A stretch of 794 nucleotides of DNA, from assembly GCF_003334765.1 (NCBI RefSeq), contig NZ_QOWT01000098.1; one strand, 5' to 3'. The notes beneath the pieces were generated by a model. It saw nothing but the letters and a program-made list of their open reading frames with translations. It was not told where the DNA came from and did not search any database. Shown here piece after piece: positions 80-501 of this stretch. How positions within the stretch are numbered: the first letter of the stretch is position 1; every line of letters begins with the position of its first letter. Position numbers and translations under genes: made by a program. Source of the stretch: Escherichia coli. GTDB taxonomy: Bacteria; Pseudomonadota; Gammaproteobacteria; Enterobacterales; Enterobacteriaceae.

Positions 80-118
80 AAAATAAACATTGCTTCATAT
101 GTTCAACTATGCGTTAAT
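80..118 (+). promoter_or_regulatory. Predicted sigma70 promoter of the csp gene: A-rich UP-like element (80..89, AAAATAAACA), -35 TTGCTT (90..95), 17-bp spacer, -10 GTTAAT (113..118); predicted TSS about 125..127
   Basis: Hexamers read directly from the sequence with canonical 17-bp spacing. The layout (AT-rich UP tract abutting a TTGCxT -35 and a cTTAAT-like -10) resembles the cspA promoter as I remember it. The predicted TSS sits immediately upstream of the cold-box-like element. Not experimentally mapped. Confidence 0.45.
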
Positions 119-126
119 GATTGCGT

Positions 127-143
127 CGGTTTGAAGAACAGAC
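127..143 (+). promoter_or_regulatory. Cold-box-like element at the 5' end of the leader (CGGTTTGAAGAACAGAC)
   Basis: Sequence CGGTTTGAAGAACAGAC closely resembles the cspA leader start (recalled as CGGTTTGACGTACAGAC), differing only in a central trinucleotide. In cspA this region is implicated in transcription attenuation and autoregulation. Comparison is from memory, not alignment. Confidence 0.5.
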
Positions 144-256
144 GATATACGAAGTAGTTTACTAAAGCAGTTCTCATTTCAGGTGTTATTCACTTATTCC
201 TTCTTTGAGTCTCTCCAATTAAGTACGAAGTCGTTTCTGTTATGCAAACCATTTAT

Positions 257-269
257 GCCGAAAGGCTCA
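257..269 (+). promoter_or_regulatory. Upstream box GCCGAAAGGCTCA, conserved cspA-family leader element; can form a GCC/GGC stem with a GAAA (GNRA) tetraloop
   Basis: Exact GCCGAAAGGC at 257..266, followed by TCA. The cspA, cspB, cspG and cspI leaders share a 13-nt upstream box (GCCGAAAGGCACA in cspA) just 5' of the SD that enhances translation. The short self-complementarity is visible directly. Confidence 0.6.
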
Positions 270-273
270 AGTT

Positions 274-278
274 AAGGA
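274..278 (+). promoter_or_regulatory. Shine-Dalgarno / RBS for the csp CDS (AAGGA), 7-nt spacer to ATG 286
   Basis: AAGGA at 274..278 within TAAGGAAT, optimally spaced to the start codon. Confidence 0.8.
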
Positions 279-285
279 ATGTAGA

Positions 286-501
286 ATGTCAAATAAAATG
301 ACTGGTTTAGTAAAATGGTTTAACGCTGATAAAGGTTTCGGCTTTATTTCTCCTGTTGATGGTAGTAAAGATGTGTTTGTGCATTTTTCTGCGATTCAGA
401 ATGATAATTATCGAACCTTATTTGAAGGTCAAAAGGTTACCTTCTCTATAGAGAGTGGTGCTAAAGGTCCTGCAGCAGCAAATGTCATCATTACTGATTA
501 A
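286..501 (+). CDS. cspB: Cold-shock protein, CspA family (CspB-like), 71 aa, complete ORF with stop TAA at 499..501
   Basis: ORF-track translation [71 protein letters not shown] has the cold-shock domain hallmarks: RNP1-like KGFGFI and RNP2-like VFVHF motifs, and the MSxKMTG(I/L)VKWFN N-terminus. The 71-aa length and the N-terminal MSNKMTGL match E. coli CspB as I recall it, not the 70-aa CspA, CspG or CspI. Start ATG 286 is preceded by SD AAGGA (274..278) with a 7-nt spacer. Paralog identity was not verified by search. Confidence 0.9.
298..312 (+). promoter_or_regulatory. Downstream-box-like motif ATGACTGGTTTAGTA within codons 5-9 of the csp CDS
   Basis: Matches the cspA downstream box (recalled as ATGACTGGTATCGTA) at 12 of 15 positions. 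The element is reported to enhance translation at low temperature, but the proposed base-pairing with 16S rRNA is disputed. It may simply reflect conserved codons for KMTGLV. Confidence 0.35.

Follow-up and report, generated by a model that had tools for sequence, protein, structure and literature searches.

The window (the whole 794-nt stretch of Escherichia coli DNA analysed here) contains cspB and its leader, which starts at about position 125 (Table 1). The open reading frame at 286–501 is the sole convincing gene, and its product is annotated as CspB (gene cspB) at 100% identity in RefSeq genomes, comprising K-12 and about 1600 E. coli. Across 78–720 the sequence shows 100% identity to the cspB region as it occurs in the Qin prophage of K-12 and in about 1600 further complete E. 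coli genomes. An Rfam scan of the window returned a single match, to the cspA thermoregulator (RF01766) at 125–517 on the plus strand, covering model positions 1–428 (E = 2e-43). The covariance-model score lies above the curated threshold (158.8 bits against a gathering score of 78), and the matched RNA precedes a cspA-family cold-shock gene and extends into it. The leader start near 125 was placed from the start of the RF01766 model and from homology to the cspA +1 position; the cspB promoter itself was missed by a promoter scan.

Both ends of the window (about 1–80 and 715–794) are IS5 ends in the same orientation. They carry a 19-nt terminal inverted repeat (62–80 with 718–736), a CTAA target-site motif adjoins each of them (77–80 and 715–718), and two IS5 copies bracket cspB. 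Both insertions at these sites occurred together in no complete E. coli genome of the collection, in which the best matches span 78–794 or 62–720. The probable −35 hexamer, TTGCTT (90–95), lies ∼10 nt downstream of the left IS5 insertion, which could therefore alter cspB transcription.

Table 1. Features of the cspB leader and coding region, with positions in the window and their predicted partners or basis.
Feature	Position	Strand	Predicted pairing or basis
cspB 5′ leader, part of the cspA-family thermoregulator RNA	125–285 (about 161 nt)	+	RF01766; aligns with the cspA, cspG and cspI leaders
Cold-box region GGTTTGAAGAACAGAC	128–143	+	Own hairpin, or base of the leader-only stem-loop (128–133:245–250, 138–142:236–240)
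Repeat copy 1 TACGAAGTAGTTT, putative switch strand	148–160	+	Pairs with 220–232 (leader-only fold) or with coding positions 312–321 (long fold)
Third related unit TAAAGCAGTTC	163–173	+	Tandem of 13-nt period with copy 1; pairs with coding positions 302–309; 26-leader alignment and full-length fold
Anti-Shine-Dalgarno stretch TTCCTTCT	197–204	+	In the long fold, partner of the Shine-Dalgarno sequence
Repeat copy 2 TACGAAGTCGTTT	224–236	+	3′ arm of the leader-only stem-loop; 224–232 opposite copy 1
TCTGT box and CAAACC, cold-box partners in the leader-only stem-loop	236–250	+	Inverted repeat; folds
Upstream box GCCGAAAGGCTCA, including a small GCC/GGC hairpin	257–269	+	Common to cspA, cspB and cspG
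Shine-Dalgarno sequence AAGGAA (273–278) and start codon ATG (286–288)	273–288	+	Open reading frame list; folds
cspB coding sequence, 71 amino acids	286–501	+	Open reading frame; K-12 annotation
Coding partner of copy 1 and the third unit	301–321	+	Inverted repeat; pair probabilities 0.68–0.99

The leaders of cspB, cspG and cspI have been reported as RNA thermometers (Nat Biotechnol 2025, PMC13271884), and the cspB leader of the window is the same RNA. According to that article, at 37 °C these RNAs form a large stem-loop that includes part of the coding sequence and hides the ribosome site, and at 10 °C a shorter stem-loop, shifted in register and lying entirely within the 5′ UTR. A temperature-dependent change of conformer with an effect on translation is reported there, from in vitro DMS-MaPseq of cspB at the two temperatures and from reporter assays of cspG. 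The lpxP thermometer, as described in PMC13271884, likewise uses two exclusive stem-loops and a sliding strand, with one stem-loop freeing the ribosome-binding site in the cold, but its sequence is unrelated and it depends on the chaperone CspE. In another organism, the Staphylococcus aureus cspB and cspC thermoswitches (PMC8034633) are reported to be csp 5′ UTRs in which alternative pairings control translation in the cold. The cspA thermosensor (RF01766; Giuliodori et al. 2010, cited in PMC9947658) has a leader homologous to that of cspB and shares its cold box, its upstream box and, at 37 °C, its long 5′ UTR–coding sequence helix, and 5′ fragments of cspA that represent transcription intermediates fold like the cold form (PMC9947658).

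Within the cspB leader, the 13-mers TACGAAGTAGTTT (copy 1) and TACGAAGTCGTTT (copy 2) are identical at 12 of 13 positions and start 76 nt apart. The earlier note had described this direct repeat at 148–160 and 224–236, and both its coordinates and the degree of match are confirmed exactly. At least one pair of this quality occurred in 21% of 2000 dinucleotide-preserving shuffles of the whole 794 nt, with a mean of 0.36 pairs per shuffle, and the earlier estimate of 0.1–0.3 expected by chance was fair. The window itself holds a second 12/13 pair, 241–253 with 659–671, which is clearly meaningless. When the 161-nt leader was shuffled alone, a 12/13 pair arose in 0.4% of 5000 shuffles, a frequency that applies to a region chosen post hoc. 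The repeat is confirmed as real and is statistically modest. No similarity extends beyond the 13-mers: on inspection the flanks of the two copies are unrelated, the repeat search gave the 13-nt pair only, and Tandem Repeats Finder reported no array in the window at a score of at least 30. Because the flanks differ and Tandem Repeats Finder reports nothing, a segmental or tandem duplication was rejected as the origin of the repeat.

These frequencies bear on one alternative, which is that the 12/13 likeness is chance or a historical by-product without functional bearing, each copy having its own role in the thermometer or none. Both the shuffled-window frequency and the second, meaningless pair count for coincidence; the low frequency in the leader, a region chosen post hoc, counts against it. 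Further evidence on both sides came from homologous leaders.

Such leaders were collected from three sources: the K-12 paralogues cspA, cspG and cspI; plasmid and phage-plasmid copies; and a pattern scan of one genome per species that used elements outside the repeat (GCCGAAAGGC...AAAATGACTGG). A sequence alignment was made of 26 distinct cspB/cspG-type leaders. Across E. coli the cspB leaders are at least 95% identical, with cspG as the next relative at 77%. Population variation within E. coli is uninformative on the repeats, since the two variant alleles inspected alter positions 244, 248 and 249 and leave the repeats unchanged; in the natural cspB alleles of CFT073 (A248G) and Escherichia sp. 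E1V33 (C249T) the pairs with the cold box are retained as wobbles. A cspG-like gene behind a full thermometer-type leader is also found on phage-plasmids of ∼110 kb from E. coli (pLF82-like) and Klebsiella. Over the leader plus the first 45 nt of coding sequence (window 100–330) these copies share about 72% identity with the query, and in them a longer hairpin replaces the upstream-box loop GAAA.

The identity between the two copies falls from 12/13 in cspB to 10–11/13 in cspG of five Escherichia lineages, 8–10/13 in three Citrobacter leaders and 1–6/13 in sixteen more distant leaders of 55–60% leader identity. The 13-mer repeat is absent from the cspA and cspI leaders; cspA has UUAAAGCAGUGUA at the equivalent of copy 1 and AACGCUUCAAAAU at the position of copy 2. 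Judging from these alignments, repeat identity is restricted to the Escherichia/Citrobacter cspB/cspG clade. The two copies also differ in their own conservation. Copy 2 of cspB matches that of cspG at 10/13 positions, the background level for leaders that are 72–77% identical. Copy 1 is part of a widely conserved element, which in most leaders reads AAAGCAG-TTTAGT-AAAGCAG, a tandem of 13-nt period whose second unit corresponds to 163–173 in the window. By comparison among these leaders, this arrangement would be the form ancestral to copy 1 and the third unit. Loss of the likeness in distant leaders and the background-level conservation of copy 2 again fit coincidence, but the likeness kept in cspG and in the three Citrobacter leaders speaks against it.

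The cold box (GGTTTG...ACAGAC) and the upstream box align with cspA and cspG, so that the sequence elements of the family are present; GGTTTG and CAGA of the cold box, and the pairs of the upstream-box hairpin, are invariant in the 26 leaders. The names cold box and upstream box are those of papers from the Inouye laboratory. Strand for strand, the cold-box hairpin GGUUUG...CAGAC (128–143) resembles the segment CGUUUC...CAAACC (232–250), and the four strands can therefore pair either as two local hairpins or as one long-range duplex. Several distant leaders have CAGACC as their downstream element, which duplicates the 3′ half of the cold box, and GGUUU occurs twice more in the coding sequence (304–308 and 317–321).

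The full-length minimum-energy fold contains a long helix at both 10 °C and 37 °C. In this long fold, copy 1 pairs with 312–321 (codons 9–12), 163–170 pairs with 302–309, the anti-Shine-Dalgarno stretch pairs with the Shine-Dalgarno region, and the start codon is enclosed. The predicted long 5′ UTR–coding sequence helix thus occludes the Shine-Dalgarno sequence and AUG, as in the cspA thermoregulator. Across the 26 leaders the long fold is 76% paired, compared with 33–45% when partners are slid. Its helix between copy 1 and the coding sequence is 91% paired in the same leaders, and seven of the eight pairs between the Shine-Dalgarno and anti-Shine-Dalgarno sequences show compensatory changes. 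Copy 2 lies elsewhere in this fold, in an apical hairpin with 246–257 that is 55% paired across homologues.

TGGTTTA occurs twice, with a spacing of 13 nt (303–309 and 316–322), in the coding segment that pairs with copy 1 and the third unit, and the 13-nt period of the tandem on the 5′ arm is explained by this. The TGGTTTA units fall in codons 6–12 (L-V-K-W-F). The leader tandem appears, from the sequence, to be shaped by complementarity to a repeat that the protein sequence imposes.

The earlier note had proposed comparing folds at two temperatures, and for the full mRNA this comparison does not display the switch: the long fold is the same at 10 °C and 37 °C, and the switch shows by prefix folding only. 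Since the full-length minimum-energy fold does not change with temperature, the cold form has to be kinetic. For prefixes that end at window coordinates of about 255–279, the minimum-energy structure is a stem-loop lying wholly within the 5′ UTR. As the Shine-Dalgarno region and then the coding sequence join the transcript, this gives way to the long fold, at 279 under 10 °C parameters and at 295 under those for 37 °C. In the leader-only stem-loop, GGUUUG (128–133) pairs with CAAACC (245–250) and ACAGA (138–142) with UCUGU (236–240), the copy-1 and copy-2 regions lie opposite each other, and the Shine-Dalgarno sequence and start codon, sequestered in the full-length fold, are predicted to be free. 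Pair probabilities are about 1.0 for 128–133:245–250, 0.94–1.0 for 138–141:237–240 and 0.56–0.60 for 142:236. The cspA leader alone folds with the same architecture as cspB and, with 10 °C parameters, this fold persists in a 187-nt fragment. We infer that the predicted leader-only stem-loop of cspB corresponds to the published cold conformer. Its stability is at the level of shuffled sequences (z = −0.7).

When the leaders were folded independently without their coding sequences, the copy-1 region lay opposite the copy-2 region in 25 of the 26, including cspB. The facing sequences differ between lineages. In cspG, which has both repeat copies (UACAAAGUAGUUU and CACUAAGUAGUUU), the leader-only minimum-energy fold pairs the two together, with UAC-AA-AGU-A-GUUUA facing UGAAC-ACU-AA-GUA. 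In Enterobacteriaceae bacterium UBA2655 the copy-1 region UAU...AGC-A-GUUUAG faces UUAAGC-GCU...GUA, in plasmid copies UAU...GCA-...-UUUAG faces CUAAG..UGC...GUA (or AUA), and in Kosakonia AGCGGU faces AUCGUU. Placed on the plain sequence alignment, the structure derived from cspG leaves 86% of cells paired, compared with 32–48% in slid controls. A covariance model built from the same structure recovered all 59 leaders, including those of the cspA type, and 56 distinct sequences were aligned. In this alignment 80.5% of cells are paired against 35–54% in slid controls, values to be read with the fact that the alignment is fitted to a structure derived from one member, cspG, and that the controls keep phylogenetic relatedness.

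Both sides change in 17 pairs of the 56-leader alignment. The cold-box helices of the leader-only stem-loop are 75–96% paired in it, and the helix that joins the copy-1 core to the copy-2 region is 79% paired, with compensatory changes in five of its eight pairs. One example is U155:A225 of cspB and cspG, which is C:G in most other leaders (32 CG, 9 UA). From the sequence alignment of the 26 leaders RNAalifold recovered only the hairpins of the cold box and the upstream box and a CAAACC:GGUUU helix; the long helices are missing because alignment gaps hide them.

The predicted pairing of these regions in all but one of the 26 leaders, together with its compensatory changes, also counts against coincidence, and it explains the UAC...GUA part of the likeness. 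Taking the evidence on both sides together, we regard coincidence as a less likely but still substantial possibility for the likeness itself, even with both copies being structural.

The pairing across the family follows the register 149:231, 150:230, 154:226, 155:225, 157:224, 158:223, 159:222, 160:221 and 161:220, in which cspB has mismatches at 148:232 and 153:227. The first of these arises from the single difference between the copies, C232 of copy 2 in place of A, which breaks U148:A232 and creates G144:C232. For cspB itself the energy model prefers CGAU (143–146) with GUCG (230–233), at a probability of about 0.87, and predicts the pairing of copy-1 GUA with copy-2 UAC only weakly (0.15–0.33). 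The symmetric family register is 0.3 kcal/mol worse. For copy 2, 143–146 is a predicted alternative partner of 230–233, and position 236 is predicted to pair with A142. In the energy model the lower stem can adopt two near-isoenergetic registers, one with CGAU:GUCG and the other with AC:GU and GUA:UAC flanking a symmetric GAA/GAA purine loop.

The copies proper form only five Watson-Crick pairs in cspB, and pairing therefore cannot explain the identity of their GAA and GUUU parts. These parts may reflect a symmetric purine loop and pairing of the U-run to A-rich partners, or chance. A more elaborate possibility is that the helix is 'slippery': the shared unit UAC-GAA-GU(A/C) would give the cold conformer its two registers, and this degeneracy, or the purine loop as a chaperone platform, could set the induction temperature window of cspB and cspG differently from that of cspA. 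We consider this improbable.

The same comparisons bear on the suggestion in the earlier note that the copies are repeated sites for a Csp-type or other RNA-binding protein. Under this explanation the 13-mers would be two single-stranded sites for one protein, such as CspA, CspE, another Csp, ribosomal protein S1, Hfq or RNase E. CspA does footprint nucleotides 12–36 of cspA mRNA, which comprise the 3′ half of the cold box and the copy-1 equivalent, and it stimulates translation of cspB mRNA in vitro (PMC9947658). However, the CspA seed is a degenerate YYR bound with little specificity (Kd 1–5 micromolar; PMC9947658), the repeat core ACGAAGUAG is purine-rich, and YYR occurs in the repeat only at the U-run junctions. 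Both copies are, moreover, predicted to be mostly base-paired, and this in both conformers. The repeated sequence is also not conserved in homologous leaders, cspA and cspI among them, or anywhere outside the Escherichia/Citrobacter cspB/cspG clade. Asked whether the repeat is conserved among homologous leaders, the alignments give a divided answer: identity of the copies decays and their pairing persists. Decay of identity while complementarity persists argues against repeated protein sites, and we hold that explanation to be highly unlikely.

A further alternative makes the likeness of the copies itself the basis of the switch, with copies 1 and 2 vying for a shared partner at 246–257, AAACCAUUUAUG, and the winner setting the state. 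Copy 2 pairs with this segment in the full-length minimum-energy fold, and copy 1 could, by sequence, form the same pairs. Yet a structure with copy 1 forced onto 246–254 is less stable than the leader-only stem-loop, by 8.7 kcal/mol (37 °C) and 7.1 kcal/mol (10 °C), and less stable than the full-length fold by 20–27 kcal/mol. The cold box occupies 245–250 in the leader-only fold with a probability of about 1.0, and the hairpin of copy 2 with 246–257 is the poorly conserved one described above. Competition for 246–257 was rejected on energy and poor conservation, and is in our judgement very improbable.

The repeat exists in the DNA as well, where a DNA-binding regulator might use the two copies, which lie downstream of the cspB promoter, as operator-like sites. 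Nothing else was found that would favour such a signal; the repeat is not conserved as a repeat, its 76-bp spacing is not a whole number of helical turns, and the transcribed regulatory RNA already accounts for the region. We find this explanation barely credible.

The reading we prefer is that the two 13-mers are probably not two equivalent modules but the facing strands of a single helix region of the cspB mRNA thermometer. When the leader alone has been transcribed, or when the early fold is trapped in the cold, a stem-loop would form within the 5′ UTR, with the cold box (128–142) paired to TCTGT...CAAACC (236–250). Above this pairing the copy-1 region (148–161) would face 220–232, which includes the first nine bases of copy 2, and the Shine-Dalgarno sequence and start codon would be left free. 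In the more stable fold, expected to dominate at 37 °C, codons 6–12 (301–321) would instead be the partner of copy 1 and of the neighbouring AAAGCAG unit, and the upper part of the long helix would pair the anti-Shine-Dalgarno stretch with the ribosome-binding site. Since copy 1 is predicted to switch partner between the two folds, it would be the switch strand, with copy 2 and the coding segment as its alternative partners. The suggestion that the copies are paired structural modules of the leader RNA thus survives in part. Both are predicted helix strands that lie opposite each other in the leader-only stem-loop, but their positions are not equivalent: they occupy opposite arms, and copy 1 alone switches to the coding sequence.

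As to why the copies resemble each other, we infer three contributions. Their core is partly self-complementary (UAC...GUA); each contains a purine-rich stretch, from which a symmetric internal loop would arise; and each has a U-run at its end, which would pair with A-rich partners. This likeness is confined to one lineage and probably serves nothing beyond the pairing. By the alignments and folds compared here, the conserved property is complementarity and not the repeated sequence.

The repeat is an ordinary detail of an already known RNA switch and not a new element. It lies inside one of the best-studied bacterial RNA thermometers, and its significance goes little beyond annotation; the direct repeat of cspB and cspG receives no mention in the available portions of the text of PMC13271884. 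The useful content is a testable assignment of the cspB leader nucleotides that face each other in the translation-competent fold, and of the strand that switches to the coding sequence. A more general caution is that the copies of a direct repeat in a structured RNA can represent opposing helix arms if the repeat unit is partly self-complementary. Complementarity that is conserved without identity distinguishes such helix arms from repeated protein sites.

Several minor features lie 3′ of cspB. TAAGGAGGT (597–605) is a strong ribosome-binding site located 7 nt ahead of an ATG at 613, which opens a reading frame of 11 codons only (MKQWLAYLAKS, stop at 646–648). The gap between cspB and ynfU in K-12 has no annotated feature at this site, and the short frame could be the remnant start of a phage gene or encode a small unannotated peptide. 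The same region contains two imperfect hairpins, 574–588 with 597–611 and 618–635 with 656–673 (18 nt, 89% complementary), followed by a terminator-like stem and T-run at 680–696 (region 680–705). These hairpins and the terminator-like stem are candidate structures of the cspB 3′ end, and the first hairpin would, if formed, occlude the strong ribosome-binding site.
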